Shown here piece by piece: positions 15,101 to 52,493 of a stretch of DNA of 64,000 bases (the first letter of the stretch is position 1; each line of letters starts with the position of its first letter). Made by a program: the position numbers and the translations under genes. The DNA comes from Vicinamibacterales bacterium. GTDB taxonomy: Bacteria > Acidobacteriota > Vicinamibacteria > Vicinamibacterales > 2-12-FULL-66-21. The notes under the pieces are model-generated. The model was given only the letters and a program-made list of their open reading frames with translations, made no database searches and was not told where the DNA came from. The stretch spans positions 3,056 to 67,055 of the forward strand of contig DATHTE010000133.1 in the NCBI GenBank assembly GCA_035463475.1, in the 5' to 3' direction.

Positions 15101-15503
15101 GCGCGCGCGGGAATCCCGGCGTGCCGACGACGGGCGTGAAGTAGTCGAGCGCGTCGGCCTTCGACGTTTCGAACGTCGCGCGCGCCGCGACGGCTTCCGT
15201 GCCGAGCGTGCTCGACGGGCCAACGCCGCGCAACACCAGAGGCGACGCGGCAATCCTTGCCGCCAGCTGCGCAAGGCTGAAGCGATGCAGTCCCACGACC
15301 GCGCCCCTCCGCAGCGCGATCCGGCGAACGAAATCATCTGCGGCACCGCGCGACGCCGCGACGACGAGGAGCTCGGTCGCCGGAGGTACGGCTTCTACGA
15401 ATGCCTGCGCATGCCGGAGCCGGGCCGCAGCGAACGCTGAGGACAGCGCCCGGACGGACGCCGCCGGCGGCGGCGCCGATGAATGCGGATTGCTGCGAGG
15501 CAC
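12153..15503 (-). CDS. addB: PD-(D/E)XK nuclease-family partner subunit with Fe-S cysteine set (AddB-type)
   Basis: 1116 aa with a degenerate helicase-like N-terminal half. The C-terminal nuclease carries NFAECPYRF plus GEGACNWCDFHVVCG, the C...C-x2-C-x5-C arrangement described for the AddB iron-sulfur cluster. It is translationally coupled to the helicase gene. Confidence 0.8.
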   Translation of the reverse strand: MPRSNPHSSAPPPAASVRALSSAFAAARLRHAQAFVEAVPPATELLVVAASRGAADDFVRRIALRRGAVVGLHRFSLAQLAARIAASPLVLRGVGPSSTLGTEAVAARATFETSKADALDYFTPVVGTPGFPRALASTLRELREAFLGAERVRRAPRVGGDLAALLDNFEAQFASAAAADRAELFRVATEEVRRGRSAWSGRPLLLLDVASDSPAEREFISALVAAAPASLMTIPAGDELSLRAAGNLTVVEHLDDESGESDLTHLRRHLFAETQPKERSVAGEVRWFSAPGEGRECVEIARFILAEARAGVPFDEMAILLRAPQRYQGQLEHALARAGVPAWFDRGTRRPHPAGRAFLAVLACATENLSASRFAEYLSLAQVPRLDVSSRRTAPGAPSTAPDDEVLAAFTRRADDGEEENSSADEGWDPGDAESSSTDAAVIAGSLRAPWKWERLLVESAVIGGADRWRRRLEGLDREYQLNAAQLQGKDPDDPRLDRIVRDRENLRRLREFALPLIETLASWPAAANWGDWLQLFDGLAPRVLRRPEEVRGVLADLRPMSAIGPVPLDEVVHVLSERLLAIESPAPRHRYGRVFVGSPHQARARTFRVVFVPGLAERMFPQRLREDPLLVDEVRRGLHAGLAVETDRATTERLLLRLASGAATERLYVSYPRVDSAEARERVPSFYGLEVMRAVTGEVMGPDRLRQLAAAATDASLAWPAPGTPDAALDDFEHDLAVLAPLLKTDDINSLVGRARYLVQLSDTLRRSVTSRWERWQHAWGRSDGIIRASKDVKEALASQRLTARPYSLSALQNFAECPYRFLLSAIHRLEPFEIPLPLQRLDALTKGSLVHRVQAEWFRTLQADGNLPLAPERLGRALNVMTATIDRVAAQFEDELAPAIDRVWRDEIESIRSDLLEWVRRLVETADDFDPEFFEFAFGLGAAGDVGHDRRDPQSRAEPVTVGGRFVLRGSVDLVERKRGTRQRRITDHKTGRNRSEPGTVVGGGRVLQPLLYGLAVELALGDPVLAGRLSYCTSAGDFSTHDVPLSEANRRSALEVLEIIDRAIETGFLVAAPGEGACNWCDFHVVCGPAEERRVAKKHPGRLADLIALREKP

Positions 15504-15671: not shown

Positions 15672-16019
15672 TCATCGCGCGAGCGATTCAAGGTGCGCGA
15701 GCATCAGGCGGCGGTGCGCGATCTGGGCGAGCGTCAGCTCGCGTGGGAAACGGGGACAGGCACCGTGTTCACTGTAAGGGGGACAGGCACCGTTTTCACT
15801 TGCACCTGAGAAAACGGTGGCTGTCCCCTGCATGACTGTCCCTGCAAGCTCACGCGCTCGGATCCGCTCCCGCTCGGAGCGGAAACAGCGAAAACAGAGC
15901 ACGTGCTGGCGATCGGCGCGGACGTGGCCGCGATACTGGTACTTCGCCCGGCGCTGCTTGCACCGGGCGCAGAGGCGTTCGTTCGCGCGACTCCGTCGGC
16001 GGCGTTCGGCGGCAGACAT
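15672..16019 (-). CDS. Hypothetical small protein with CxxC...CxxC zinc-ribbon-like N-terminus; the middle of the ORF is made of palindromic repeat elements
   Basis: MSAAERRRRSRANERLCARCKQRRAKYQYRGHVRADRQHVLCFRCFRSERE... Residues encoded by 15752-15842 (GTATVFSGASENGACPPYSEHGACPRFP) are the translated repeat copies. Coding status is uncertain. Confidence 0.4.
   Translation of the reverse strand: MSAAERRRRSRANERLCARCKQRRAKYQYRGHVRADRQHVLCFRCFRSERERIRARELAGTVMQGTATVFSGASENGACPPYSEHGACPRFPRELTLAQIAHRRLMLAHLESLAR
15752..15842. repeat. Cluster of GGGGACAGGCACCGT(G/T)TTCAC elements (2 direct, 1 inverted, 1 partial)
   Basis: GGGGACAGGCACCGTGTTCAC at 15752-15772, GGGGGACAGGCACCGTTTTCAC at 15778-15799 and the inverted GAGAAAACGGTGGCTGTCCCC at 15808-15828. 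The last two form a 19-bp stem with one central mismatch. A partial TGACTGTCCC lies at 15834-15842. Confidence 0.85.
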
Positions 16020-16130
16020 GGGTCCCTCCTCTTTCTGGCGGCCCCGAACCGTGCGTCGCGAGCCGCCCTTACCTGGCGCGAGGATCTCAGGTCGCCGTGA
16101 CAGGGCCGGTCCTACGTCGTTTCTTCGCTG

Positions 16131-37469: not shown

Positions 37470-38318
37470 ATGCGCGCGCGCAGATTGTCGGCGGCGGCGT
37501 TGTGCGGAATTCTCTTCACGTCGGGCGGTCTCATCGCGTGCGGCGGCGGGGGCGGCGGCGGCTCGACGACGAGCCCCAGCGCCACGGTGACGTCGCTCGG
37601 CATCAGCCCCGGCACGGACACGCTCAAGCTGAGAGCGAGCGAGTCGTTCACCGCGAACGCCACCATGTCGAACGGGACGACGAACGTCGTCACCGCGACG
37701 TGGCGGAGCGACAACACGTCGGTCGCCACGATCGATTCGACCGGGCGCGCGACGGGAGTCGCGTCCGGCAGGGCGACAATCACGGCGGAGTACCAGGGAC
37801 TGTCCGCGAACCGGACCCTGCGCGTCGTCCCGGATTACCAGGGGACCTGGCGCGGGTTCCTCAGCATGCGCAGTTGCTCGGCGACGGGTGACTGGCAGCT
37901 GGCGGATGTGTGCGGGGACCTGACGGCCGGCGATCAGGACACTCTCAGCCTGACCCTCTCGCAGCAGAGCGCCAACGTCAGCGGAACGATCGACATCGGT
38001 GGCTTTGCGGGTCCGATCACCGGCACGATCGCGGACAATGGGTCCCTCTCGCTCACGGGCCTCTACAACACGTCCTACGATGGGTTCCCCGTCCAGATCG
38101 GCGTCTCCGACTGGCAGACGATGTCCTCGGACAACTCGCGCATGACCGGGCGCTTCGTCTTCACGGTTCGGTCGCAGCCGGCGCTCAGCGGAGACGTGCG
38201 CGTGGAAACGGACCTCGTGGACGTGAACAAGACGGCGGCGACCCTCATGCCGATGCGGAGCACCCACGGCGCGCTCGGCGCCGCGGTGCGGCGAGCGCGC
38301 GGGCGCGTCCCGCACTAG
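37470..38318 (+). CDS. Lipoprotein with Big_2 (bacterial Ig-like) domain
   Basis: AGGAGG lies upstream. MRARRLSAAALCGILFTSGGLIACGGGGGGGS is a lipobox LIAC followed by a Gly linker. LGISPGTDTLKLRASESFTANATMSNGTTNVVTATWRSDNTSVATIDSTGRATGVASGRATITAEY is a typical Big_2 pattern. Confidence 0.7.
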   Translation: MRARRLSAAALCGILFTSGGLIACGGGGGGGSTTSPSATVTSLGISPGTDTLKLRASESFTANATMSNGTTNVVTATWRSDNTSVATIDSTGRATGVASGRATITAEYQGLSANRTLRVVPDYQGTWRGFLSMRSCSATGDWQLADVCGDLTAGDQDTLSLTLSQQSANVSGTIDIGGFAGPITGTIADNGSLSLTGLYNTSYDGFPVQIGVSDWQTMSSDNSRMTGRFVFTVRSQPALSGDVRVETDLVDVNKTAATLMPMRSTHGALGAAVRRARGRVPH

Positions 38319-38462
38319 TGTGGACCGTTACTCGCCGTTGAAGGACCGGTATCGTTTTGGAACCGCGGAGCTCGCGGAGGACGCGGAGGCGCGCTGCCGG
38401 CCGGCACCTGCGTTGCACCCGCCCTCGGCGGTCTCCGCGCTCTCCTCCCGATACCAAGGGGC

Positions 38463-38759
38463 TCACCGCTCCCAGCCCCTTAACCGGTAATACTTGTCCT
38501 TCGGCTCACCAGTCCAACCGTTGATACCGTGTTTGGGAAGCCACCACATGTGAATCACCACGAAGGGGACGACCGCTGCAACAACAAGAAAGGCCAACGC
38601 CCAGGCGCGGCCAAAACTGGCCGAGATGGCAATCGTGAGCCCCACGAACACAAGCACCTTCAACGCCCGGCGGCCCCTTGGCGTCCTCTCCTCGAAGTGC
38701 CCGAAGAAGATGTTCCCAAACGCAAAGATGGTCATGACGATGGCGACCTCGAACCACAT
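38463..38759 (-). CDS. Small membrane protein (98 aa, about 3 TM)
   Basis: The ATG at complement 38759 gives MWFEVAIVMTIFAFGNIFFGHFEERTPRGRRALKVLVFVGLTIAISASF... The gene is visibly more A/T-rich than the window average. Confidence 0.55.
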   Translation of the reverse strand: MWFEVAIVMTIFAFGNIFFGHFEERTPRGRRALKVLVFVGLTIAISASFGRAWALAFLVVAAVVPFVVIHMWWLPKHGINGWTGEPKDKYYRLRGWER

Positions 38760-39109
38760 CTGAGCACTCCGCTTCCTTTCCAGTGAACCAGGCAGATTGT
38801 GCGTTCCGATTGACCGTCTGACGAATACCGGGCCGACCAGCATATCGCGGCCGGCCCTACGGCGCTCGCCGCATTACGCCAAAGCGCCGGCACCCTGGAG
38901 ATCCGCCGGCGTCCCGTGAGGTAGAGCACGACGCCCGTGATCAGGCCAGGCGAGTAGCGGCCCGTGGCAAACACGCTGGCAGGGAGCGGGCGCCCGGCAA
39001 CGGTCGCGAACCACTGGGGGAAACCGCCCAGCCACTCTTCCACGATGTGCGCCGCGTACGCGGCCACGAAGAGCTACACGAGCGGCGGATCGTTATACTG
39101 CCAGCGCAT
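38732..39109 (-). pseudogene. HXXEE-domain membrane protein gene interrupted by an in-frame TAG at codon 12 (probable pseudogene)
   Basis: Own reading from the ATG at complement 39109: MRWQYNDPPLV-TAG-LFVAAYAAHIVEEWLGGFPQWFATVAGRPL..., with the TAG at complement 39076-39074. After about residue 60 the hydrophobic character is lost, suggesting an additional frameshift. Confidence 0.45.
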
Positions 39110-39158
39110 GTCTGGTGTCGCTCGAGTCCGTTAGATCGGCGATTCGAGACCTGACCCT

Positions 39159-39776
39159 ATGAGCTTCTCCTCAGAACTTCGAGACGAGTTCGGCGAGATC
39201 GACATATACCTTTTCGACCAGCTCCTCAAGGGACGGTTCGATTCGCGTCGCACGATCCTGGACGCGGGCTGCGGGATCGGCCGGAACATCCGCTGGTTCA
39301 TCAGGCATGGGTTTGCCGTGCACGGAATCGACGCCGACGCGGCGGCGATCGGACGCCTGCGGAAGATTGCCGCCGAGCTCGCGCCCTCGCTGCCGCCGGC
39401 GCACTTCATCGCCGGCGACCTCTCGATCTTGCCTTGGCGCGACCGGACGATGGACGCGGTCATCAGCAGCGCCGTGCTCCACTTCGCGCGCGATGACACC
39501 CACTTCGCCGACATGCTGCAAGAGCTGTGGCGGGTGCTCAGATCCGGCGGCCTCCTCTTCGCCCGGCTCGCCTCCACCATCGGTCTCGAAACGCGCGTCC
39601 GCTGGCTGAACGGCCGCCGCGCGCGGCTACCGGACGGCAGCGAGCGGTTCCTCGTGGACGAACCGTTCCTGCTCGACTGGACCGACCAGCTCGGCGCCAG
39701 GCTGCTCGAACCGATCAAGACCACCAACGTGCAGAACCAGCGCTGCATGACGACGTGGGTCATCGGCAAGGACTAG
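39159..39776 (+). CDS. Class I SAM-dependent methyltransferase
   Basis: ILDAGCGIGRNIRWFIRHGFAVHGIDADAAAI (motif I plus the acidic post-I residue), MDAVISSAVLHF and LRSGGLLF. 205 aa. Confidence 0.8.
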   Translation: MSFSSELRDEFGEIDIYLFDQLLKGRFDSRRTILDAGCGIGRNIRWFIRHGFAVHGIDADAAAIGRLRKIAAELAPSLPPAHFIAGDLSILPWRDRTMDAVISSAVLHFARDDTHFADMLQELWRVLRSGGLLFARLASTIGLETRVRWLNGRRARLPDGSERFLVDEPFLLDWTDQLGARLLEPIKTTNVQNQRCMTTWVIGKD

Positions 39777-39777
39777 G

Positions 39778-40125
39778 TTAAAGCACCTCCGCCACCGCGC
39801 CCGGCGTGACCGTGAGATCCGGCTGCTCCGCGTCGTCCGGCGCGCCGTGTGAGACCACGTGCTGGGCGCGGCGGAGCAAGTTCTCCTTCACCCACTCTGT
39901 GTCTGCAATCACGCGGTAGATGTGCACGTGCACCCCTGGACGGTATCGGCGTTCGGCCGCCGCCCACTCGCGGGCTTCCTCCTCCGTCCAGAACGCCCTG
40001 GCAAGTCGCGGGCGCGCCGCGGGCCGGGCAGCGGTTGGCGCAGGTTGTTCGTACGCAAGCCAGATCGTGCAGATCCCGCCGCGTTGGGAGATCCGACGCC
40101 CGAGGAGCTTCAGCGTCGTCGGCAT
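39778..40125 (-). CDS. Hypothetical 115-aa protein, second gene of the operon under the WYL regulator locus
   Basis: The ATG at complement 40125 is preceded by GAGGGTGG and lies 14 nt after the stop of the upstream gene. Translation: MPTTLKLLGRRISQRGGICTIWLAYEQ...AFWTEEEAREWAAAERRYRPGVHVHIYRVIADTEWVKEN... No motif recognised. Confidence 0.5.
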   Translation of the reverse strand: MPTTLKLLGRRISQRGGICTIWLAYEQPAPTAARPAARPRLARAFWTEEEAREWAAAERRYRPGVHVHIYRVIADTEWVKENLLRRAQHVVSHGAPDDAEQPDLTVTPGAVAEVL

Positions 40126-40139
40126 GGGACCACCCTCGG

Positions 40140-41108
40140 CTATGCGGCAAACGCGCCCAGATGGACGACGCGATCGTCGTGCACGAGTGCGGCAGCTGTG
40201 ACACCGGGCGCGTGGATCCGGACATCGACGCCGAACCCGATCGCCGACATCGGCTTGCCCGGGACGCGCGCCGTGGCGTCCAGGAACTGGCTGGCCGCCA
40301 CGCGAAGCGACCCCTCCGCGCGCCGCCGATGGCGATGCCGGCCTTGCGTCCCCTCGCCCGAGCGTGTCCGGTCATCGTCGATGGCGTCGAGTGCGTAGCT
40401 CCGAACGATTTTCGGGAGCAGTTTGCGCAGGAGCGGCGCCGTGGCGAAGAGCTCGAACCCGGCTACGCGCTCCCCGACGGCGAACAGCGCGCCCGTCTGG
40501 CCCGGCGCGGGAAGCAGTGCGGCCACGAACTTCTCGATCGAATCCTCGTAGCTGACGAACATCGCTTCCATAGCGGAGGTGGGCGAGTGCGCCTGCATGC
40601 GAGCGGACTTCTGCGCGATGTCGTCCCAGACGGCACACTGGTCCGCCATGCGGGCGCCGTGGCTCATCATCGACGCGGTGACCTGCTGCATCTTGCGCGC
40701 GCGGCCGGCGGCGAACTGCACTCGCGGCGCGGCGGCAAACGTCCGCGATCGCGCGTGCCAGCGCCCCGCCTCCACGCACGAAACGGGGATCTTCAGCACC
40801 GACCGTGGCGGGACCAGGATCGACAGGTTGACCACGCGGTTCTGCTTCGCCCCAATCAGTTCCTCGCCGTCGAGGATGAAAACGGGCGCGTCAGAAGTGT
40901 TCGAGACACGGAGCTCGGGAACGCTCCCCTGCTCCGAGACCTCGGTGATGCGCGCCCAGCCGCCGCTGAGCGCCTCGTCGAGGGTGAGAAATTGATCCGC
41001 GGGGCCCGGCTCGTTCTCGCGGCCGAGGAGCGGAAACATGGTCAGGTTCTGGACGGTGACGTCGATGCCTATGGTCACGCCGGCGATGGCGGAGGTGATT
41101 GCGCTCAT
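40140..41108 (-). CDS. Conserved-looking protein of unknown function, resembling the DUF6569 / ARPP-1 family (from memory, unverified)
   Basis: 322 aa. VQNLTMFPLLG...FLTLDEALSGGWARITEVSEQGSVPELRVSNTSDAPVFILDGEELIGAKQNRVVNLSILVPPRSVLKIPVSCVEAGRW. The GEEL-x-GAKQNR and PVSCVE-x-GRW motifs are what I associate with that family. The CDS itself is well supported; the family name is tentative. Confidence 0.6.
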   Translation of the reverse strand: MSAITSAIAGVTIGIDVTVQNLTMFPLLGRENEPGPADQFLTLDEALSGGWARITEVSEQGSVPELRVSNTSDAPVFILDGEELIGAKQNRVVNLSILVPPRSVLKIPVSCVEAGRWHARSRTFAAAPRVQFAAGRARKMQQVTASMMSHGARMADQCAVWDDIAQKSARMQAHSPTSAMEAMFVSYEDSIEKFVAALLPAPGQTGALFAVGERVAGFELFATAPLLRKLLPKIVRSYALDAIDDDRTRSGEGTQGRHRHRRRAEGSLRVAASQFLDATARVPGKPMSAIGFGVDVRIHAPGVTAAALVHDDRVVHLGAFAA

Positions 41109-41158
41109 GCCTGCGAGGGTAGAACTGGCTGTGGACAGGGCTGGTCACACTTTCAGGA

Positions 41159-41185
41159 GGCAGAAGACAGAAGGCAGGAGACAGA
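41159..41185. promoter_or_regulatory. 13-bp direct repeat in the divergent intergenic region (candidate operator)
   Basis: GGCAGAAGACAGA at 41159-41171 and GGCAGGAGACAGA at 41173-41185. They lie inside the 140-bp gap between the divergently transcribed 40140-41108 gene and the WYL gene. Confidence 0.25.
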
Positions 41186-41248
41186 TGCTCCGCCGCGCGT
41201 TGCCGGTTGCCCGCGCCATGTTTCTGTCCTTCGGCGTAAAATTCGGCC

Positions 41249-42307
41249 GTGAGAAACAGCGAGCTGGTGCGGCAGTGGGAAATCCTGCGGACGATCGACG
41301 CCACCGAGACGGGCGTCAGCGTGCAGAAGCTGGCAAGGGCGAGCAGGGTGCACCCGCGCACGATTCGGCGTGACCTCGAGGCGCTCGAACGCGCGGGATT
41401 CCCGCTCTATACCGATCGCGAAAGCGGCACGACGCTCTACAAGTTCAGCTCCAAACCGTTCAAGAGACTGGCGCAGACAGGGCTGGGCCTGCCGGAGATG
41501 TGCGCGCTCTATATGAGCCGGTCGATGCTGGAGGCGCTCGCGTCGGCGCCGTTCCGCGACGAGCTGACGCGCGCGATGGCGAAGCTCGAGGCGACGCTGC
41601 CTGAGGGGGTGCGCCGCTTCCTGGATCGACTGCCGGCGGTGCTGCAGGCGAAGAGCGAGCCGCGCAAGCGGCGCGACGAGAAGCGGCTGCGCGAGATCGT
41701 GCCGCGCATCATCGATACGGCGCTCGACAAGAAGCGCGTCACCATGACGTACCACTCCTTCTCCAGCGGCCGCGTGAAGGAATACGTGATCGAGCCATAC
41801 CGGCTCACGTACGCGCAGGGAGGGATCTATCTCATCGCGTTCGTGCCGGAGTACGGTCAAATGCGCACCTTCGCCGTGGAGCGCATCCGCGCGTACGCCG
41901 AGACCGGGCAGCGCTTCGACGGCAAGCGCACGCTCACCGACAAGCCGTTCAAGAACTCCCTCGGCGTCCACACGGGCGATCCTGCCCGCGTCGAGATCGA
42001 GTTCGACCGCAGCATCGCGGCCTACGTGTTCGAGCGCGACTGGCACGCGTCGCAGCGCGCGGAAGAGCGGCCGGACGGCTCGCTGCTCCTGACGCTCGAC
42101 GTCTGCATCGACCCCGCCCTTCGAAGCTGGATCCTCAGCTTCGGCCCGCTCGCGCGGGTCGTCGCGCCGCGCGCGCTGGCGGAGGAGATCCTCGAGGAAC
42201 TGGAAGAGGCGCGGGAGAAGTACGCGCCGCGCATGGAGTTCGACGAGCCTGCGACGCGGCTGTACGCGGCGCTCGGGCCGCGGCTGCCGTTCGCGAGGCC
42301 GAGCTAG
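41249..42307 (+). CDS. WYL-domain transcriptional regulator (HTH - WYL - C-terminal extension)
   Basis: The GTG at 41249 is the first start after an in-frame TAA. HTH: VSVQKLARASRVHPRTIRRDLEALERAGFPLY. WYL region: RVTMTYHSFSSGRVKEYVIEPYRLTYAQGGIYLIAFVPEYGQMRTFAVERI. The C-terminal part (WHASQ...LLLTLDV...SWILSFGPLARVVAP) resembles the WCX extension. Confidence 0.85.
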   Translation: MRNSELVRQWEILRTIDATETGVSVQKLARASRVHPRTIRRDLEALERAGFPLYTDRESGTTLYKFSSKPFKRLAQTGLGLPEMCALYMSRSMLEALASAPFRDELTRAMAKLEATLPEGVRRFLDRLPAVLQAKSEPRKRRDEKRLREIVPRIIDTALDKKRVTMTYHSFSSGRVKEYVIEPYRLTYAQGGIYLIAFVPEYGQMRTFAVERIRAYAETGQRFDGKRTLTDKPFKNSLGVHTGDPARVEIEFDRSIAAYVFERDWHASQRAEERPDGSLLLTLDVCIDPALRSWILSFGPLARVVAPRALAEEILEELEEAREKYAPRMEFDEPATRLYAALGPRLPFARPS

Positions 42308-42309
42308 TG

Positions 42310-43185
42310 TCAGGGCTCAGGGTCGAGGGGGTCGGTAATCGGTCGTATCGTCTCGTGAAGCGGCGTTGTCGCGCGGACCAGGCGATCGCCGCGCGGGACC
42401 AGCAGACCTTCTGCGGCCGCGTCGTACATCTCGGCGAGCGCCTCGGCCGCCGATTGCCCCAGTCCCGCCTGCAGGAGCGCCGGCACCCACTGCGGCTGCG
42501 GGATGTTCACCACCCGCAGCGGCTTGCCCAGCGCGTCGCCGAGCGCCTTGGCGACGTCCCGCTGGGTGTAGTCGGGGCCGACGAGATCGACCACTTCACT
42601 CGCCTGCGGCGGGCGCGAGAGGCACTTCGCCACCTCGTCCCCGATGTCCCTGGTCGCGATCATCGGGAACGCCACATCGTCGCGGTCACCGAAGTTCGGG
42701 AAGATGCCGGCGCTCTGTGCCAGGAGGAGAGCCTCGGCGGCGTTCTCCTGGAAGTACGACGCGCGGAGCGCTGTCAACGAGACTCCAGTGCTGCGCAGGC
42801 ACTCCTCGAAATAGTGCAACCCCTTGATCGGTCCGGTGCCCTCCGGCAAATCGGCGCCCACCGAGGAGAGCAGGACCACATGCGGGACTTCGCTTGCGCG
42901 GACGGCCGCGGTCACCGCCTCCGCGACCCGTCGCTGCGCGGCGAACAAATCGGCTGCGCCGTAGTCGGGTGGCAGCAGCACGAAGAAGCCTGTCGCGCCT
43001 CGAAGCGGGCCGGCAAGCGACTGCGCGTCCCGCAAGTCCGCGACCGCGACGTGCGCGCCGCGCGCCGCCCAGCGCGCGCCCCTCGCCGAATCCCGGACGA
43101 TCACCCGAACCGGCTTCCGCTCCGCCAGGAGCCGACCGGCTGCCACGGAGCCCACGTGACCAGTTGCACCGGCGATCACAAGCAT
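42310..43185 (-). CDS. NmrA-like / NAD(P)H-binding SDR-type protein
   Basis: MLVIAGATGHVGSVAAGRLL is a GxxGxxG Rossmann motif. 291 aa. The stop codon lies 2 bp from the WYL gene stop (convergent). Confidence 0.8.
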   Translation of the reverse strand: MLVIAGATGHVGSVAAGRLLAERKPVRVIVRDSARGARWAARGAHVAVADLRDAQSLAGPLRGATGFFVLLPPDYGAADLFAAQRRVAEAVTAAVRASEVPHVVLLSSVGADLPEGTGPIKGLHYFEECLRSTGVSLTALRASYFQENAAEALLLAQSAGIFPNFGDRDDVAFPMIATRDIGDEVAKCLSRPPQASEVVDLVGPDYTQRDVAKALGDALGKPLRVVNIPQPQWVPALLQAGLGQSAAEALAEMYDAAAEGLLVPRGDRLVRATTPLHETIRPITDPLDPEP

Positions 43186-43285: not shown

Positions 43286-44779
43286 CTACTCGTATTGCAC
43301 GATTGTCAGTTGGCCGTCCGCGCCCACGATGAACAACTGGTCTTCCTTCAACGCCATGCCGGTCGGTCGCGACAGCCCGGGGATTGCCTGCGCGGCGACG
43401 ATGGTGCGGGCGCGGAGGTCGATGGCCAGCAGCGTGCTGTGCGCAGCGCTGAGTGCGTAGAGGCGGTCCCCCGCGATCGCGGCGCCAGTCACGTAGTACG
43501 CATCGAGCGGGCGTTCCCCCGAACCCGCCCTCGCCATCGCCGCAAGCTCCGGAGCCAGCGCAGGCACGAACTCCTCCGACAGCAGGCGGTCGGTCATGGA
43601 GAACCGCGAGACGACGAGCCCTTTCACTTTCGCGTTCGGAACGGCGAGCGTGTACATCGAGTTCGACGCGGCATCGTACGCCGCGGACATGATGTACATC
43701 ATGCGCGCGCGCACTGTTGCGAAACGGGAGCGCGACACTTCCGTGAACTGGTCGAACGATTCCAGGAAATACCGGTAGTTCCGATCGACATCCGCGGACC
43801 CCTCCGGCTCGCGGAGGATCACGTAGCTCTTGTTCTCGCTGACGGCGATGACGGTCCGGCTGTCGACGAACGCCGCGGCCGCAAAGCGCGCAATGTCAAC
43901 CGAGAAGGCGGGATCGATCACGGTGTGACGCAGGACCCGCGAGAGCGACCCGTCGGTCACGTACACGCCGTGTTCCGTCGTCAGAAGAAACCGTCCGCTC
44001 GTCTGGTCGTACGCGAGGCCCGTCGGCGCGCCGCGCAACGGCAGCGCGAGAGGGCGGCGTTCCACGACCCGCAGTTGCGGAAGCCCCTGCAGTGGGCCGC
44101 TGCCCGGATCCGGATCGACGGCCGCCACGTCCGGCTTGTCGATTCCCCAGCGGCCGCGGAACGAGATCGGCGCCGGAGCGTACTCGTCCAGCGACCAGAT
44201 CCAGTGCCGCGGGTTGAACGAGAAGCGTACGGGGTCCGCCTGACCGATGAACGGCGGCGGGCCGGTGCTCGCGAATGCCTGGACGATGTTCGCCGCGATG
44301 ACAACCAGAAAGACGACGAAGGCGACGCTGTCGATGCGGCGGAGCGGGCGCGGCGGCCCCGGCGCGAGGTCGGCGTCGCGGGCGAGCATGATCAACGCGC
44401 CGATCGCTGCGGTGCTGCACCAGAAGATGACGAACGACCACGTGTAGGTGTGCGCGCCCAGCATCTCGAGGCTGAAGCCCTGCCCGATGTCGCGGGCGAC
44501 GTGAAGCGCCGAATGCCGGACCGCCATGTAAATGCCCCACACGCCGACCAGGACGGCCAGCCCCAAGTACCGGGGCTTCGCGCCGTAACGCAGCACGAAC
44601 AGCCCGATCAGCGCGATGAGGGCCATGCCGATGCGCTGCTGCCAGCAGAGAATGCAGGGAGACTCGCCTCCGAAAAAGCCCAGGACGAACGCGGCGATGC
44701 CCACCGGCACGGCCGAGAGAAAGAGGACGGCAAGGGCGAGCACGGTGTCGATCGCGGAGGCCGGGGGGCGGTCGGACAT
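43286..44779 (-). CDS. DsbB-family disulfide oxidoreductase fused to a large C-terminal soluble domain (DsbI-like architecture)
   Basis: The N-terminal about 160 aa has 4-5 TM segments and the DsbB hallmark SPCILCWQQRIGM (C-x-x-C-x-x-QR). The C-terminal about 330 aa is non-membrane and beta-rich. The same layout is described for Campylobacter/Helicobacter DsbI (DsbB domain plus beta-propeller). Confidence 0.7.
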   Translation of the reverse strand: MSDRPPASAIDTVLALAVLFLSAVPVGIAAFVLGFFGGESPCILCWQQRIGMALIALIGLFVLRYGAKPRYLGLAVLVGVWGIYMAVRHSALHVARDIGQGFSLEMLGAHTYTWSFVIFWCSTAAIGALIMLARDADLAPGPPRPLRRIDSVAFVVFLVVIAANIVQAFASTGPPPFIGQADPVRFSFNPRHWIWSLDEYAPAPISFRGRWGIDKPDVAAVDPDPGSGPLQGLPQLRVVERRPLALPLRGAPTGLAYDQTSGRFLLTTEHGVYVTDGSLSRVLRHTVIDPAFSVDIARFAAAAFVDSRTVIAVSENKSYVILREPEGSADVDRNYRYFLESFDQFTEVSRSRFATVRARMMYIMSAAYDAASNSMYTLAVPNAKVKGLVVSRFSMTDRLLSEEFVPALAPELAAMARAGSGERPLDAYYVTGAAIAGDRLYALSAAHSTLLAIDLRARTIVAAQAIPGLSRPTGMALKEDQLFIVGADGQLTIVQYE

Positions 44780-47530: not shown

Positions 47531-47571
47531 GGTCAGGGTTCAGGGTTCAGTGTTCAGGTTCAGGGTTCAGG
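47531..47571. repeat. GGTTCAG-type heptamer tandem tract at convergent gene ends
   Basis: ggtcagg gttcagg gttcagt gttcag gttcagg gttcagg. It overlaps the last codons of the dynamin-like gene (...LNPEPEH). Confidence 0.8.
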
Positions 47572-49355
47572 CCGGCGTCAGGTCGGCCGCGTGAGAACGC
47601 TGCCAATTCGTCCACCCGCGAACGCAGCACCTCGAGGTCGCAGGTGAGGGCGAGGAGCTGCTGTTCGGTTGCGCGGAGCTTGTCTCCTTCAGCGCGGACG
47701 AAGCGGCTGTAAGGCGCGATGCCTTCGCGAATCCGCGCCGTGCTCGCCCTGATCTCGCGCTCGAACTGCGTGCGCAGCGCCAGCGACAGCCGCTCCCGCA
47801 CGTCGGTGATCTTGCGGCGCATCTCATCCTTGGCTTTCTGGCGGCGCGCCGGGATGATGAAGAAGCCGAGCGCCGCGAGCACGCTCGCCATGATGAGGCC
47901 CGTGACGTCGGCGACCGCCGTGCTCGCGGCGACCGTCACCAGCGTGCCCAAGCCGAGCGCGCCCGCGCCGGCGGCGGCAGCGGCGGCCACCGCGTTCCGG
48001 GCGCCGTCGGCGAGCTCGCTCGCCTCGCGCCGGCGGTCGAACGTGTCCACGGCGCGCTGCGTCTCCCTGCCGACCGCCTCGACGAGCCGCGTGCGATCGT
48101 GATGGAACGCGCGCGTCTCGGGATCGCCGCGCTCGCCCAGGATCCGCTCGCGATACTCGCGCCGGCGCTCCGCCAGGTGTGAAGACACGCGCTGCCACTG
48201 GCGATAGTCGTTGTCCACGAGCCAGTCCACCAGTTCGTGGACCTTCCGCTCGATCTGCTGCGGCGCGTCCGCCACGACCTGCTGCTCGAACCCCTGCTGC
48301 ACGCGCGCGCGGTTCAGGAGGTCCATCACCCGGCCGATCCGGAGCGTGTCATCGAAGAAGTCATGGCCGCGCCGCTCCATCTGCAGCAACACGTTTTCGA
48401 CTTCCGCCATCCTCCCCTCGAACTCCCGCAGCATGTCCTGCTCGTAGAGCCCGAGCTGCGCCTCGACGTCTTCAAGCGCCGCGAAGTCGTCGGCGAGCAG
48501 CGTCAGCCGCTCGCGTGTCAGGCCCAGGTACCGGTTCGTGAGCGACACGCCGATGCCGAGCGGGTTGAGCAGCTTCAGCTTCAGGCGGCTCGCCTGGTCC
48601 AGCGTGTCGCGGATGTAGCGCTCGAGCGGCTCGAACCGGCTCGCCTGCCAATGCGACGGGTCGCCGCGCTTGGCGCGAATCGCGAGGCGGGCGCTGACCG
48701 GGAAGATCTCCGGGACCGTGCCCAGCAACAACTGCGCGTTCGCCTCCACGAACCGGCGCACCTCCTCCAGCTCGCCCTCGTCGTGGAAGATGTCGATCTT
48801 GTTGATGACGATGACGATCTTCTTGCCCCATTCGCGGATGTACTCGAGGAAAGCGCGCTCCGTCTCGGTGAACGGCCGGTCCGCCGACGTGACGAACAGC
48901 ACGAGGTCCGAGCGCGGAACGAACTCGGACGTCAGGCGCTCGTGCTCGCGCATGACCGCGTTCGTCCCCGGAGTGTCCACGATGTGGATGTCCCGGAGGA
49001 TATCGGCCGACGCCGTCACCACGACAACGTTATCGCGTGTGACCTCCCCGCGCGTGCCGACAGGCACCGACTCGCCGTGCTTCAGCAGCGTGACCTGGGC
49101 GGTCGTGGGCGTCACACCTTCCGGCAAGACGGGCCCGCCAACAAGCGCATTGATGAAGGCGCTCTTTCCCGCGTTGAACTCGCCCACGACGACGAGCAGG
49201 AAGAGCTCGTCGAGCTGTTCGATGGAGCGGTCGAGCGTGGCGCGCGTGTCTTCGCTCGCGCCGAAGCGGATGAGGGCCGCGCGCAGGTCGTTCAGGAGGC
49301 GGCGCTCGCTCCGGATGAGCTCCTGGTCCGCAACGCGGAGAATCTGGTTCAGCAT
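47547..49355 (-). CDS. Bacterial dynamin-like GTPase with C-terminal membrane hairpin
   Basis: The ATG at complement 49355 gives MLNQILRV... G1 is VVVGEFNAGKSAFINALVG, G3 is IVDTPG and G4 is VINKID. A long helical stalk follows. The hydrophobic segment is GAGALGLGTLVTVAASTAVADVTGLIMASVLAALGFFIIP. Confidence 0.85.
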   Translation of the reverse strand: MLNQILRVADQELIRSERRLLNDLRAALIRFGASEDTRATLDRSIEQLDELFLLVVVGEFNAGKSAFINALVGGPVLPEGVTPTTAQVTLLKHGESVPVGTRGEVTRDNVVVVTASADILRDIHIVDTPGTNAVMREHERLTSEFVPRSDLVLFVTSADRPFTETERAFLEYIREWGKKIVIVINKIDIFHDEGELEEVRRFVEANAQLLLGTVPEIFPVSARLAIRAKRGDPSHWQASRFEPLERYIRDTLDQASRLKLKLLNPLGIGVSLTNRYLGLTRERLTLLADDFAALEDVEAQLGLYEQDMLREFEGRMAEVENVLLQMERRGHDFFDDTLRIGRVMDLLNRARVQQGFEQQVVADAPQQIERKVHELVDWLVDNDYRQWQRVSSHLAERRREYRERILGERGDPETRAFHHDRTRLVEAVGRETQRAVDTFDRRREASELADGARNAVAAAAAAGAGALGLGTLVTVAASTAVADVTGLIMASVLAALGFFIIPARRQKAKDEMRRKITDVRERLSLALRTQFEREIRASTARIREGIAPYSRFVRAEGDKLRATEQQLLALTCDLEVLRSRVDELAAFSRGRPDAGLNPEPEH

Positions 49356-49394
49356 CGCCGAACGGGCGTAGAGTGCAAAGCGCGTGCGCGGGAC

Positions 49395-49454
49395 CAAAAC
49401 GGGGACTGTCCCCTTTTTCCTTAAGTAGGAAAAACGGTGACTGTCCCCGTTTTT
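49395..49454. repeat. Two palindromic GGGGAC(A/T)GTC(A/C)CCGTTTT elements between the 99-aa gene and the dynamin-like gene
   Basis: AAAACGGGGACTGTCCCCTTTTT at 49395-49417 and GGAAAAACGGTGACTGTCCCCGTTTTTC at 49427-49454 (9-bp stem GAAAAACGG/CCGTTTTTC). The position fits a terminator/attenuator after the 49463-49762 gene. Confidence 0.8.
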
Positions 49455-49462
49455 CTGTTCTT

Positions 49463-49762
49463 CTACTCCCGGGCGCGGATCTCTTCGACCTTCCGCTCCC
49501 GCTCCGACGTGAGCCGCTCGCGCTCGCGACGGTAGTTCTCCTCGGCCTCCTGCCACGCCTGCGGATCGACGGCCTTGGCGAGCGCCGACTGGTGCATCAC
49601 CTCCGCCTGCGCGATCTTCGCCTCGTAGAGGTTCCGCACTTCCGCGATTTCAGCTTTCTGTGCGTCGGTCAGCGGACGCTCGACGATGCCCTGCTCGGCG
49701 TCCTTCTTCAGGAGGCGCTCCATCGCGAGCTCGTAGGCGGATTTCGGGCCCTTTTCGGTCAT
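49463..49762 (-). CDS. Hypothetical small helical, charged protein (99 aa)
   Basis: MTEKGPKSAYELAMERLLKKDAEQGIVERPLTDAQKAEIAEVRNLYEAKIAQAEVMH... The composition is coding-like. It is on the same strand as, and upstream of, the dynamin-like gene. Confidence 0.6.
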   Translation of the reverse strand: MTEKGPKSAYELAMERLLKKDAEQGIVERPLTDAQKAEIAEVRNLYEAKIAQAEVMHQSALAKAVDPQAWQEAEENYRRERERLTSERERKVEEIRARE

Positions 49763-49934: not shown

Positions 49935-50672
49935 TTGCATTACTGCCCCACCGTGAGGTCCGCTGCGCAGCTGGGCTTCGGATTTCTGACGCTCGCGGTG
50001 CTCACCGCGGCGCCATCGCTACACGGCGATGCGGACGCAGTGCGACTCGAGCCGGCGGTCGCGCGCTACCTCGACCGCTGCACAGATCCCTTGACCAGCT
50101 ACCGGGCCTTCAGACGCCTCGAGGCCGATGGCATGGGCCAGGCGGGCTGGCTGGAAGCGTGGACGAGCCTCGAGGGGGACACGTTCTCGTACGAAATCGT
50201 CGCCGAGGGTGGGTCGGAGCGCGTGCGGCGTCGCGTGCTGCGCAAGGTCCTCGAAACCGAGCGCCTGGCATGGGTGTCCGGCGAGGCGCGCCGGAGCGGC
50301 ATCGACGCGGACAACTACGAGTTTCTCAGCGCGCCCGAGCAGCCGGAGGACCTGTTGAAAGTCCTCCTCAAGCCGCGGCGCAAGGGCAAGCTGCTGGTCA
50401 ACGGCGCGATGTTCCTCGGACGCCACGACGCGGCGCTGGTGCGCGTCGAGGGGCGCCTCGCGTCGAGCCCGTCGTTCTGGATCAAGCACGTGGACCTGAC
50501 GCGCCGCTACGAACAGGTGAACGGCTTCAACCTGCCGGTGGACGTCGAAACGCTCGCCGACCTTCGGTTCGCGGGCACCGGCACACTGCGGATGTCCTAC
50601 CGTTACACGCACGTGAACGGCCGGCCGATCGGCCTGCCTGCCGTCGTCACGTCCATCGGCTCGGGTCGCTGA
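49935..50672 (+). CDS. Secreted hypothetical protein (possibly LolA/RseB-like fold)
   Basis: The start is a TTG at 49935 or, more likely, a GTG at 49953 (VRSAAQLGFGFLTLAVLTAAPSLHG signal). The sequence is beta-rich (...TFSYEIVAEGGSERVRRRVL...LVRVEGRLASSPSFWIKHVDLTRRYEQVNGFNLPV...). The fold guess is weak. Confidence 0.55.
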   Translation: MHYCPTVRSAAQLGFGFLTLAVLTAAPSLHGDADAVRLEPAVARYLDRCTDPLTSYRAFRRLEADGMGQAGWLEAWTSLEGDTFSYEIVAEGGSERVRRRVLRKVLETERLAWVSGEARRSGIDADNYEFLSAPEQPEDLLKVLLKPRRKGKLLVNGAMFLGRHDAALVRVEGRLASSPSFWIKHVDLTRRYEQVNGFNLPVDVETLADLRFAGTGTLRMSYRYTHVNGRPIGLPAVVTSIGSGR

Positions 50673-50775
50673 CCCCCGGGCGGGCCGACCTCCGCCTCGC
50701 CGTACGCCGCGAGCAGAGCCGGCAGACCGAACTCCGGAGGCGGTCTCCCCCCGGACGCTGCGACTCATCCGATCG

Positions 50776-51045
50776 TCAGCTCGCGAACGGCAGAGCCCCA
50801 GACCGAACCGATGTGGCCGGATCGCGGTCCTCGAGGGCGCGCCGCGCCCGGATTTGCGCGCGGCGGCGCTTCAGCTCGAGTTCCCGAAGCCGCTCCCGGA
50901 GCACTTCTTCGCCCGAGCGGAAGGTCAGCGCGGCGCGCTCGAAGGAGCGTCCCACCAGGATGGGGTCCCACAGCACCCCCTGCGCTGCCGAGCGGGCCGG
51001 CGACGAGCGTCGGCGTGCGGTCTTGCGGGTGAGCATCAATGCCAT
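50776..51045 (-). CDS. Hypothetical 89-aa protein
   Basis: GAGGAG lies about 8 nt upstream of the ATG at complement 51045. The third codon position is G/C-rich. Translation: MALMLTRKTARRRSSPARSAAQGVLWDPILVGRSFERAALTFRSGEEVLRERLRELELKRRR... Confidence 0.45.
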   Translation of the reverse strand: MALMLTRKTARRRSSPARSAAQGVLWDPILVGRSFERAALTFRSGEEVLRERLRELELKRRRAQIRARRALEDRDPATSVRSGALPFAS

Positions 51046-51115
51046 TGGTTTCTCTCCTCTTGAAGCGACTATAGAAAAGGGGTGTGACAGACTGGGTCAC
51101 ACTGAGGAGATCTGC

Positions 51116-51688
51116 GTGACACAGCTGACCGAGCGGTTCATGGAGGCGGTGCGGTATGCGGCGGACGTCCACAAGGAGCAGCCGCGCAAGGGGACCGGCA
51201 GGCCCTACATCGCGCACCTGCTGGGAGTGGCGTCGTTCGTGCTCGATGACGGCGGCGACGAGGATGCGGCGATCGCGGCGCTCCTGCACGATGCGCCGGA
51301 AGACAGGGGAGGACGCGCGCGCCTCGAGGACATCCGACGCCGCTTCGGTCCGAAGGTCGCCCACATGGTCGAGGGATGCACGGACAGCTGGTCAGAGCCG
51401 AAGGAGCCGTGGCTGGACCGGAAGAAGAAGTATGTCGAGCATGCGAGAGCGCTCGACGCCGAGACCCTTCGAGTGTCGGCCGCAGACAAGGTGCACAACG
51501 CGTACGCGATCCTGCGTGACCTGCGGACGCACGGCGAGGAGGTGTGGGCCCGGTTCAACGCCTCGCCTGACGACATCCTGTGGTACTACGACACGCTCGT
51601 GCGTTCCTTCCGCGAGGCGGGCGGCGGGAGCCTGGTCGATGAGCTCGAGCGGGTCGTCCGCGGGATCAAGAGAGAGATGGGGTACTGA
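51116..51688 (+). CDS. HD-domain metal-dependent phosphohydrolase (SpoT/RelA-N-terminal-like)
   Basis: GAGGAG at 51104-51109 precedes the GTG at 51116. Motifs: YAADVHKEQPRKGTGRPYIAHLLGVA...AALLHDAPED (H...HD) and VSAADKVHN. Confidence 0.8.
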   Translation: MTQLTERFMEAVRYAADVHKEQPRKGTGRPYIAHLLGVASFVLDDGGDEDAAIAALLHDAPEDRGGRARLEDIRRRFGPKVAHMVEGCTDSWSEPKEPWLDRKKKYVEHARALDAETLRVSAADKVHNAYAILRDLRTHGEEVWARFNASPDDILWYYDTLVRSFREAGGGSLVDELERVVRGIKREMGY

Positions 51689-51698
51689 GCAGCCCCGC

Positions 51699-52493
51699 AT
51701 GCCGCGCTTCAAGCTGACGATCGAGTACGCGGGGACGCGCTACAGCGGCTGGCAGATCCAGAAGAACGCGAAAACGGTCCAGGGGGAGATCGACCGTGCG
51801 TTACGCGAGGTTGCGGCGGGACGCAAGTTCGAGCTTTACGGGTCCGGCCGCACTGATGCCGGCGTGCATGCGCTGGCGCAGGTCGCGCACCTCGACATCG
51901 CCGCGACGCTCCCGCCCGAAACGCTGCGACGCCGCCTCAACGACGAGCTGCCGTCCGACATCAACGTGCTCGCCGTGGAAACGGTGACCCACAGGTTCCA
52001 CGCGCGGCACAGCGCGGTGGCCCGCAGCTACCTCTATCAGATCGCCAGGCGGCGCACGGCGTTCGGCAAGGCGCTTGTCTGGTGGATCCGCGAGCCGATC
52101 GATCTCGATCGGATGCGGGACGCCGCGCTCCTGTTCCGGGGGCTTCGCGACTTCCAGTCGTTCACGGAAGACGATCCCGAGCTGAAATCGACGAAGGTGC
52201 AGGTGGACGGCATCCGCATCGAGCCGAGCGGCGACCTGGTGCTCCTCCGCATCGAGGGCTCGCACTTCATCTGGAAAATGGCGCGCCGCATCGTCGGCGT
52301 CCTTGCGGCGGTGGGAACGGGCGACCTGACGCGCGAGGACGTGCGGCGGTTCCTCGAAGAGAGGTCCGGAACCCCCGCGAAGCTGACAGCGCCCGCGTCC
52401 GGCCTGTTTCTCGAACGGGTGTATTACGAAGGGGACCGGCGCCTGGACGCGCTGGTACCCGTGCTGAATCTCGACCCGCGGCAGCCTACCTGA
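51699..52493 (+). CDS. truA: tRNA pseudouridine(38-40) synthase
   Basis: MPRFKLTIEYAGTRYSGWQIQKN...LYGSGRTDAGVHALAQVAH contains the catalytic GRTDAGVHA motif. 264 aa. Confidence 0.9.
   Translation: MPRFKLTIEYAGTRYSGWQIQKNAKTVQGEIDRALREVAAGRKFELYGSGRTDAGVHALAQVAHLDIAATLPPETLRRRLNDELPSDINVLAVETVTHRFHARHSAVARSYLYQIARRRTAFGKALVWWIREPIDLDRMRDAALLFRGLRDFQSFTEDDPELKSTKVQVDGIRIEPSGDLVLLRIEGSHFIWKMARRIVGVLAAVGTGDLTREDVRRFLEERSGTPAKLTAPASGLFLERVYYEGDRRLDALVPVLNLDPRQPT

Follow-up and report, generated by a model that had tools for sequence, protein, structure and literature searches.

We propose that, in a 64-kb stretch of DNA from a 205-kb contig of a Vicinamibacterales metagenome-assembled genome (Acidobacteriota, a soil acidobacterium; these 64 kb, hereafter the window, are the part of the genome inspected), a WYL-domain regulator and the divergent two-gene operon beside it probably represent a DriD/PafBC-type activator together with one arm of a regulon dispersed in Acidobacteriota and probably induced by damage. 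The operon encodes a 322-residue protein of the ARPP-1/DUF6569 family and a 115-residue small protein, and its promoter carries a conserved box, GAC-N7-GTC, that recurs at two more window promoters, 25 kb and 10 kb away, the former belonging to an AddB/AddA-like operon. The regulator type and the adjacency of WYL and ARPP genes are already known; the box, its dispersed acidobacterial targets, the link between ARPP-1 and AddAB-like genes and two small-protein families are new, no description of them having been found in the literature searched. The three genes and the promoter elements between them are laid out as follows.

41249-42307, plus strand: open reading frame (ORF) of the WYL regulator, 352 residues, GTG start.
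40140-41108, minus strand: ARPP-1/DUF6569 ORF, 322 residues, first gene of the operon.
39778-40125, minus strand: small-protein ORF, 115 residues, second gene, after ARPP-1.
40130-40137, minus strand: Shine-Dalgarno sequence of the small gene, GAGGGTGG, as read from the sequence, 4 nt before the ATG at 40125.
41132-41148, minus strand: operator box GTGACCAGCCCTGTCCA (GAC-N7-GTC), at the -35/-26 position of the ARPP-1 promoter.
41116-41121, minus strand: -10 hexamer TACCCT, separated by 12 nt from the box and by 7 nt from the ARPP-1 ATG.
41116-41146, minus strand: box 1 with its -10, GACCAGCCCTGTC-N12-TACCCT, followed by ARPP-1 and the small protein.
41237-41242, plus strand: candidate -10 hexamer TAAAAT of the WYL gene, 6 nt before its GTG; taken from sequence only, it would imply a leaderless mRNA.

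This layout reproduces in full what a sequence-only reading of the locus had described, namely the three ORFs, a 140-bp divergent intergenic region (41109-41248), a 14-nt gap with a ribosome site between the ARPP-1 stop and the small-gene ATG (40126-40139), and convergent neighbours 1-2 bp off, on the small-gene side a methyltransferase ORF (end at 39776, 1 bp away) and on the WYL side an NmrA-like ORF (end at 42310, 2 bp from the WYL stop). The same reading saw an insert-like unit in this compactness, for which we find no compositional support, as the GC content of the trio equals that of its surroundings. Rfam and tRNA scans around the module gave nothing relevant.

The box came to light in an alignment of the upstream regions of ARPP-1 loci, which revealed a conserved GTGACC-N3-CCTGTCCA. 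Our comparison covered 88 ARPP-1 loci, comprising the three closest relatives, 80 reference genomes and loci fetched via the small protein (labels such as L001 denote fetched homologous loci), and the consensus reads tGACC-N3-CCTGTC, then 12 nt, the -10 hexamer, 7 nt and the ATG. In the window the box stands 25 nt before the ARPP-1 start, and the operator 17-mer has one match there at two mismatches or fewer. In the window we count three instances of the full bipartite pattern where 0.08 would be expected, a number that none of 100 shuffles reached, and over the window and loci combined (865 kb) the core GACC-N3-YCTGTC is found 42 times against 5.5 in shuffles. In silico, GTC-N12-nAnnnT is present in most of the 37 distinct box sites and is then followed by about 7 nt and a start codon; the distance from box to ATG is 24-26 nt at most sites and 42 nt in L065. 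This short distance suggests that the ARPP-1 mRNA is leaderless; such a start would account for the lack of a Shine-Dalgarno sequence before ARPP-1, in contrast to the small gene inside the operon. No sigma-70 -35/-10 pair was predicted in 39600-42500.

At least 20 loci have the box before ARPP-1 (among them L001-L009, L011, L013, L018, L023, L040, L065, L084-L086 and L090), and it is kept there when the WYL gene is convergent (L001) or lies about 3 kb off (L004, L008, L023). It is also found directly before the small-protein gene by itself (L087/88, L091/92), before a Zn-ribbon gene upstream of WYL (L004, L008, L085, L091), and before genes for Ig-like lipoproteins (L087, L089) and DUF932 (L090). 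The sequence-only proposal that the WYL protein controls the operon is thus backed by a conserved candidate operator in the ARPP-1 promoter. The direct repeat to which that reading had drawn attention in the intergenic region is real (41154-41185, no strand assigned, 14-nt period; 2.3 copies at 88% by Tandem Repeats Finder, and 41154-41181 at 86% in a repeat search); it was rejected as the operator, which is a separate element at 41132-41148, because it is not visibly common to orthologous intergenic regions and does not have the GAC-N7-GTC arrangement. Reading the box as an extracytoplasmic-function (ECF) or sigma-70 -35/-10 pair was likewise abandoned, the spacing being wrong (21 nt from TGACC and 12 nt from CCTGTC to the -10). 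A metagenome scan with the 15-mer TGACCACCCCTGTCC returned 120 matches, nearly all of them chance and with genuine ARPP-1 promoters only in L100 and L144, so that it gives no unbiased view of the regulon.

Since the same box stands at other promoters, the trio is better described as a regulator plus one arm of a dispersed regulon than as the self-contained unit of the sequence-only reading. The other box-driven units of the window are these.

16081-16111, minus strand: box 2 with its -10, GACCGGCCCTGTC-N12-GATCCT, before the Zn-ribbon/AddB-like/AddA-like operon, 25 kb from ARPP-1.
15672-16019, minus strand: Zn-ribbon protein, 115 residues (CxxC...CxxC, ADR-H, CFRCFR), first gene after box 2.
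12153-15503, minus strand: AddB-like gene, 1116 residues, PD-(D/E)XK by Pfam.
8614-12156, minus strand: AddA-like gene, 1180 residues, UvrD helicase and PD-(D/E)XK by Pfam.
51068-51098, minus strand: box 3 with its -10, GACCCAGTCTGTC-N12-TATAGT, before an 89-residue ORF, 10 kb from ARPP-1.
50776-51045, minus strand: the 89-residue ORF, with coding-like GC content at third codon positions (GC3), a perfect TATAGT -10 and a Shine-Dalgarno sequence.

The AddB-like and AddA-like genes overlap by 4 nt, and the domains of the pair are those of a machinery for double-strand-break resection. A homologue of the AddB-like protein (E=1e-21) is encoded close behind ARPP-1 in L005, beyond a PKD lipoprotein gene, and members of the same AddB-like cluster (c12) are found downstream of ARPP-1 also in L004 and L065. 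The Zn-ribbon protein belongs to a four-cysteine family (consensus CxxC...ARFRYRG-VRADRDH-LCFRCFRA) with no Pfam or PHROG match, whose members are always box-driven (L004:994-1239, L008:1064-1249, L085:1957-2157, L087:4766-4969, L091:1793-1975) and are encoded directly upstream of WYL on the same strand in L004, L008, L085 and L091; the window copy has a 50-residue C-terminal extension. A possible role for this protein is as a co-regulator, or as a DNA-binding partner to the WYL protein. As for box 3, ORF 50019-50768 (minus strand) was considered as a second gene after it and set aside, GC3 favouring the opposite-strand ORF 49935-50672. Divergent from the 89-residue ORF lies an HD_4 ((p)ppGpp-hydrolase-like) gene at 51104-51688 (plus strand), whose family (cluster c14) adjoins ARPP-1 in five other loci, and after it stands the only tRNA of the window, Ser-CGA (51795-51884, plus strand).

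The regulator has the full helix-turn-helix, WYL and C-terminal-extension architecture that had been ascribed to it. Pfam places HTH_11 at residues 9-60 (7.9e-8), WYL at 151-215 (1.7e-15) and WCX at 245-321 (1.4e-14), giving the order winged helix-turn-helix, helical linker, WYL and WCX of DriD/PafBC-type activators, and the GTG start fits the N-termini of orthologues. Its nearest solved relatives by sequence are PafBC (6sj9, 1.7e-7) and DriD (8tp8, 3.9e-7, full-length alignment). In DriD, Arg37 and Arg41 read guanines, and the contacts of Arg2, Arg8 and Thr38 are with phosphates (PMC10853764, PMC13004042); in the HMMER alignment R2, R8, R37, T38 and R41 of the window regulator stand at identical positions, and R37 and R41 are also the counterparts of the guanine-reading R46/R50 of PafB. 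DriD Glu40, which reads C1, is replaced by Arg40, and the half-site is correspondingly TGAC, compared with CGAC in DriD. Among the 23 WYL proteins adjoining ARPP-1 that we compared, R-T-I-(R/Y)-R-D is found in nearly all orthologues from box loci, the exception being that of L062, which differs at T38, and the distant gammaproteobacterial members at box-less loci have Ala37. Across these proteins the recognition helix co-varies with the presence of the box. Within the 11 residues of the DriD single-stranded DNA (ssDNA) pocket, five are identical in the regulator (Y168, S172, R176, Y192, R204), three are conservatively changed (R178K, W206F, Y240H) and three are lost (R189Q, R207A, R288P).

The shared geometry extends to the promoters. 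The DriD target CGxC-N7-GxCG overlaps the -35 position, keeps a fixed distance to the -10 and belongs to promoters without a -35 element (PMC10853764, PMC13004042), all of which holds in silico for the GAC-N7-GTC box. DriD, the homodimeric HTH-3HB-WYL-WCX activator of an SOS-independent damage response in Caulobacter crescentus, further resembles the window regulator in domain order and length, in governing a multi-operon regulon that includes recombination and repair genes, and in likely autoregulation, as in relatives the box precedes Zn-ribbon-WYL operons. The two systems differ in the half-site and residue 40, in the spacer, which is GC-rich in the window box and AT-rich in the DriD target, in phylum, and in the targets ARPP-1, small protein, Zn-ribbon protein and Ig-like lipoproteins. 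Mycobacterial PafBC, which adapts sigma through a -26 element, recognizes tGTCgg(N10)tA(N3)T (PMC8635444), so that in both systems GTC stands 12 nt upstream of a TAnnnT -10; promoters without a -35, many leaderless transcripts and the position of 6sj9 as the best PDB sequence match of the regulator add to the likeness. PafB and PafC, however, form a heterodimer that reads one half-site and needs RNA polymerase for binding, whereas the window has a single regulator gene and a palindrome-like box of two half-sites, as expected of a homodimer. Among the genes of the DriD and PafBC regulons are recA, recJ, recB and helicases. A third comparison is SiwR of Mycobacterium smegmatis, a genotoxic-stress-induced WYL activator that binds ssDNA, acts through a -26 element and adjoins its biochemically uncharacterized target operon, being a local activator of adjacent DinB-like genes (PMC10693628); its element is a GGA triplet and the DinB/YfiT-like targets treated in that paper are the adjacent genes, while the window box stands at several unlinked promoters.

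Taken together, the DriD/PafBC geometry, the conserved DNA-reading residues and the co-variation of the recognition helix point to the adjacent WYL protein as the factor most likely to read the box. Another factor, for instance the Zn-ribbon protein, might read it instead, leaving the WYL gene a mere member of the regulon; the Zn-ribbon gene is itself box-driven and lies directly upstream of WYL in several loci, and in five of the ARPP-1 loci with a box (L005, L040, L065, L084, L090) no WYL gene was seen over a distance of 5 kb. GAC-N7-GTC is, however, the very geometry read by DriD Arg37/Arg41, both conserved in the window regulator; the recognition helix changes with the box, and a regulon-type transcription factor needs no adjacency to every target. 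We regard this as the least probable of the alternatives weighed here.

With the WYL protein as reader, the following sequence of events would be expected. A WYL homodimer would bind the GAC-N7-GTC box at -35/-26 of promoters that have a -10 and no -35, and on binding of a nucleic-acid signal to the WYL domain, most likely ssDNA arising from DNA damage, would recruit RNA polymerase. The box before ARPP-1 would drive a leaderless mRNA carrying also the 115-residue gene, translated from its own Shine-Dalgarno sequence, and further copies of the same box would drive the small ORF behind box 3 and, 25 kb off, the Zn-ribbon/AddB/AddA-like resection operon. Activation rather than repression, the ssDNA ligand and the DNA-damage trigger are inferred.

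The 322-residue protein belongs to the ARPP-1/DUF6569 family, as had been supposed (PF20208, E=1.5e-91; score 307.3 bits, the gathering cut-off being 27; residues 12-320 cover positions 3-297 of the 297-position profile). The motifs from which the assignment was first made, DGEELIGAKQNR and IPVSCVEAGRW, are invariant across 15 diverse homologues, as are Q89 (GAKQNR), C111 (PVSCVE), E113 and H316. Iyer, Burroughs, Anantharaman & Aravind (2022, Viruses 14:1977) treated this same PF20208 family, reporting an absolutely conserved Cys and Gln in an inserted conserved region, and proposed that ARPP acts on ribose or other sugar moieties, possibly via the Cys as in SRAP (PMC9503650). The family is large, with more than 4,572 protein-search matches and 586 loci in species-representative genomes. 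An AlphaFold2 (AF2) model of the window protein is of moderate quality, with a predicted local distance difference test (pLDDT) score of 72.9 and a predicted template modelling (pTM) score of 0.74; Foldseek found no usable relative for it (best PDB match E=0.046, template modelling score ~0.2), and the ARPP-1 profile had no match among PDB sequences. We propose an enzymatic role for ARPP-1, with a sugar or nucleotide moiety in damaged nucleic acid as its substrate.

'A WYL domain TF', that is, a transcription factor, is one of the three conserved two-gene ARPP neighbourhoods of Iyer et al. (2022, PMC9503650), and the WYL-ARPP pair is therefore not undescribed; what holds up of the sequence-only reading is a probable WYL control and an uncharacterized effector pair. 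ARPP has its definition in predicted conflict systems, whose WYL and Nudix transcription factors were proposed in that work to be repressors sensing ADP-ribose (ADPr), that is, negative regulators responding to ADPr-type ligands in anti-viral systems (PMC9503650), a difference from the activator envisaged here; the operator, the small protein and the AddAB-like link are not described there. On those lines the trio would be an anti-phage module in which the WYL protein, as a repressor of BrxR/CapW type, holds down ARPP-1 and the small protein until released by a phage-derived nucleotide or ADP-ribose signal. The neighbourhoods of ARPP-1 and small-protein genes, which vary and include many toxin-antitoxin pairs, nucleases and helicases, are consistent with such a module, as are the module flanks, which differ between close relatives (window, L001, L002, L003), and a site overlapping -35 is compatible with repression. 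ADP-ribosylglycohydrolase and PTP (rhodanese-phosphatase), the usual ARPP partners, are however absent from the whole 64-kb window by tblastn, as the sequence-only reading had noted, and Macro and NADAR genes are likewise absent from it; ADP-ribosylglycohydrolase occurs in 9 of 88 ARPP-1 loci, and it is the alternative published context, a WYL neighbour, that the window displays. PADLOC and PHROGs gave no match for ARPP-1 or the small protein, and in 2.9 million viral contigs ARPP-1 had one partial match and the small protein none. In PADLOC-DB v2 the regulator matched mainly generic WYL accessory models and, more weakly at domain level, Cas3c, AbiEii and CARF3. Nor is the setting that of BrxR or CapW, the neighbours being a methyltransferase, an NmrA-like protein, a DsbB-domain protein and an Ig-like lipoprotein, with no defence-system match. 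The box at the AddAB-like operon and at another promoter shows a regulator not dedicated to the pair, and the promoters without a -35, the fixed GTC-N12-(-10) spacing and the DNA-reading residues all match the activators DriD and PafBC. An anti-phage function is for these reasons unlikely in our view, and of the 'conflict or stress module' first suggested for the trio the stress half fares better on the DriD/PafBC-type evidence, nothing marking the trio as anti-phage.

The small protein had been called an orphan, and a word-indexed search with it indeed recovered only itself; exhaustive HMMER and profile searches were needed to find its relatives, eight among 1.84e9 representative proteins by the former and 74 among 5.8 billion proteins by the latter. 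It is 49% identical (E=7e-36) to the 114-residue product of the gene directly after ARPP-1 in the close relative L003, and the family, a rare one, has the invariant motifs RGG..WL, RAFW and YR..D..W. The GC content of the gene at codon positions 1, 2 and 3 (0.73/0.53/0.81) is coding-like, compared with 0.70/0.77/0.65 for an overlapping shadow ORF, and by these sequence criteria the 115-residue gene is real, conserved and coding. Its AF2 model is a confident alpha/beta fold (pLDDT 93.5, pTM 0.85) for which Foldseek gave no usable fold assignment (PDB matches at E>=0.03) and BFVD only weak partial matches to uncharacterized phage proteins of about 60 residues; the profile has no match among PDB sequences, and Pfam and NCBIfam gave none either. 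The profile and structure searches proposed with the original reading thus leave both proteins without a solved relative, while providing the small gene with homologues. An apparent 214-residue fusion of the small protein in L091 was discarded, since the box and ATG put the start at 2174 and yield a 109-residue protein.

Within the operon the small protein may be an accessory factor of ARPP-1. A tighter relation, in which the two form a toxin/immunity or enzyme/inhibitor pair and the small protein neutralizes ARPP-1, could be read from their close same-strand coupling (the 14-nt gap in the window, overlapping stop and start in L003 and L085) and from the confidently predicted fold of the small partner. 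ARPP-1 is, however, independent of the small gene, which is absent within 5 kb in 80 of 80 reference-genome loci; the small gene occurs without ARPP-1 under its own box promoter (L087/88, L089, L091/92) and stays intact in L086, where ARPP-1 is frameshifted, and neither protein matches a Pfam toxin or antitoxin family. This alternative is accordingly very improbable. The arrangements of the small gene are otherwise varied, as it lies directly after ARPP-1 in the window, L003 and L085, after ARPP-1 and a PKD lipoprotein gene in L084 and L090, after a PKD lipoprotein gene in L086 and L089, alone in L087/88, and divergent from WYL in L091/92. The L086 pseudogene (L086:3095-3855) retains the box and start, and its locus, with intact PKD and small-protein genes downstream, is otherwise collinear with L084.

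The recurrent neighbours of ARPP-1 in the loci compared are as follows.

22 loci: a WYL gene no more than 5 kb away, usually divergent and found chiefly in the closest acidobacterial relatives.
14 loci: RtcR/CARF-type sigma-54 activator.
9 loci: ADP-ribosylglycohydrolase.
7 and 5 loci: HD-type phosphohydrolases.
5 loci: AddB-like PD-(D/E)XK protein.
4 loci: PKD lipoproteins.

The three genes do not regularly keep together in relatives, where the regulator can be convergent with ARPP-1 or several kb from it and the small gene is missing from all 80 reference-genome loci. The RtcR/CARF loci (Gammaproteobacteria and some Acidobacteriota: L017, L020, L035, L044, L049, L054, L058, L063, L067, L070, L072, L074, L077, L083) have a sigma-54-like promoter, TGGCAC-N5-xTGC, before ARPP-1 in 5 of 14 cases against 4 of the 66 others, about 50 nt upstream in four of those five and 117 nt upstream in L035. 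The RtcR/CARF family is known for sensing damaged RNA (reference 165 in PMC9503650), and this activator would be a second class of nucleic-acid-sensing regulator for ARPP-1. The AddAB-like operon under the box, these RtcR/CARF neighbours, and the near-absence of the proteins from viral contigs and from defence and phage libraries together favour damage or nucleic-acid stress as the occasion for expression.

Several observations weigh against a damage-responsive activator. The similarity to DriD and PafBC is weak (E ~1e-7), and three DriD ssDNA contacts are lost in the HMMER alignment (R189Q, R207A, R288P); the ligand of the regulator could be another nucleic acid or nucleotide, and a site overlapping -35 could also serve a repressor. 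The WYL promoter in the window is without a canonical box, whereas driD is autoregulated. In the 64 kb inspected only one operon under the box is clearly repair-related, and the 89-residue ORF under the third box has no homologue in the fetched loci. Finally, the Ig-like lipoproteins, DUF932 and unknowns under the box are rather what one would expect of a variable island or a conflict region, as are the neighbouring toxin-antitoxin pairs, SNase, proteases and helicases; secreted lipoproteins in particular sit oddly in a DNA-damage regulon.

A bolder extension of the DriD/PafBC-type reading, plausible and short of probable, is that Acidobacteriota (Vicinamibacteria and relatives) possess a third, independently diversified WYL-controlled SOS-independent damage regulon, beside PafBC in Actinobacteria and DriD in Alphaproteobacteria, defined by tGACC-N3-CCTGTC-N12-(-10) and with a core that includes ARPP-1, the 115-residue RGG-FWTR protein and the four-Cys Zn-ribbon protein. 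ARPP-1 may in that case be a Cys/Gln/Glu/His enzyme processing damaged sugar or ADP-ribosyl moieties on DNA, as SRAP does at abasic sites, and if so ARPP would move from an 'NAD/ADPr conflict accessory' to a nucleic-acid damage-response enzyme, a change in keeping with RtcR/CARF as its other regulator and with the HIRAN association published for it. ARPP-1 is a large conserved family with enzyme-like invariant residues and no assigned function or solved relative, and the DriD/PafBC-like operator together with the AddAB-like operon offers a hypothesis on both its expression (genotoxic stress) and its substrate (damaged nucleic acid). The finding further supplies a defined 17-bp candidate site, would add a major soil phylum to those with damage responses under WYL activators, and brings to light two unnamed small-protein families, the 115-residue and the Zn-ribbon one, that travel with the regulator. 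Should the damage link fail, it would still correct the idea of a self-contained defence module and establish the 115-residue gene as conserved.

Additional features were observed around the regulator and its relatives. A 16-nt imperfect inverted repeat (41210-41225 / 41252-41267, 75% complementary) flanks the WYL start codon and is a possible translational or transcriptional control element of the regulator. In L001, the closest relative with a long contig, the WYL gene is convergent and overlaps the ARPP-1 3' end, and divergent from ARPP-1 at this locus (L001:4885-5871, minus strand) is a metallo-beta-lactamase-fold protein matching the Anti-Pycsar Apyc1 family, which is of the cyclic-nucleotide phosphodiesterase type. 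Genes for Ig-like (Big_2/PKD) lipoproteins are repeatedly found immediately behind ARPP-1 or immediately ahead of the small-protein gene (L002, L005, L008, L084, L086, L089, L090). The window has a Big_2 lipoprotein gene of its own at 37470-38318 (plus strand), 1.5 kb off, on the opposite strand and with no box upstream, whose product is 35% identical (E=6e-31) to that of the gene after ARPP-1 in L002 (L002:7130-7810). 'Regulon islands', with several box-driven units within a few kb, are seen in L087 (boxes at 560, 3400 and 4729), L090 (2477, 5922) and L089 (458, 538); the products of these units are a Big_2 lipoprotein, the small protein, a Zn-ribbon together with a 220-residue protein, ARPP-1 and DUF932, and between the units lie genes for PemK/MazE or PIN toxin-antitoxin pairs, for a PTP-like phosphatase and for an AddB-like nuclease.

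Near the trio, the patch at 38463-39109 that had been described as decayed, lower-GC genes does show a dip in GC content (0.60-0.65 at 38400-39400 against 0.68-0.72 around); decay is not shown, as ORF 38463-38843 (minus strand) reads as an apparently intact small membrane protein with a GC3 of 0.74, with no Pfam match and no homologue among the fetched loci. Two further genes of the window, unrelated to the finding, encode a 497-residue protein with an N-terminal DsbB domain and a long C-terminal part to which no domain is assigned (43286-44779, minus strand) and a 669-residue dynamin-family GTPase (47547-49556, minus strand).

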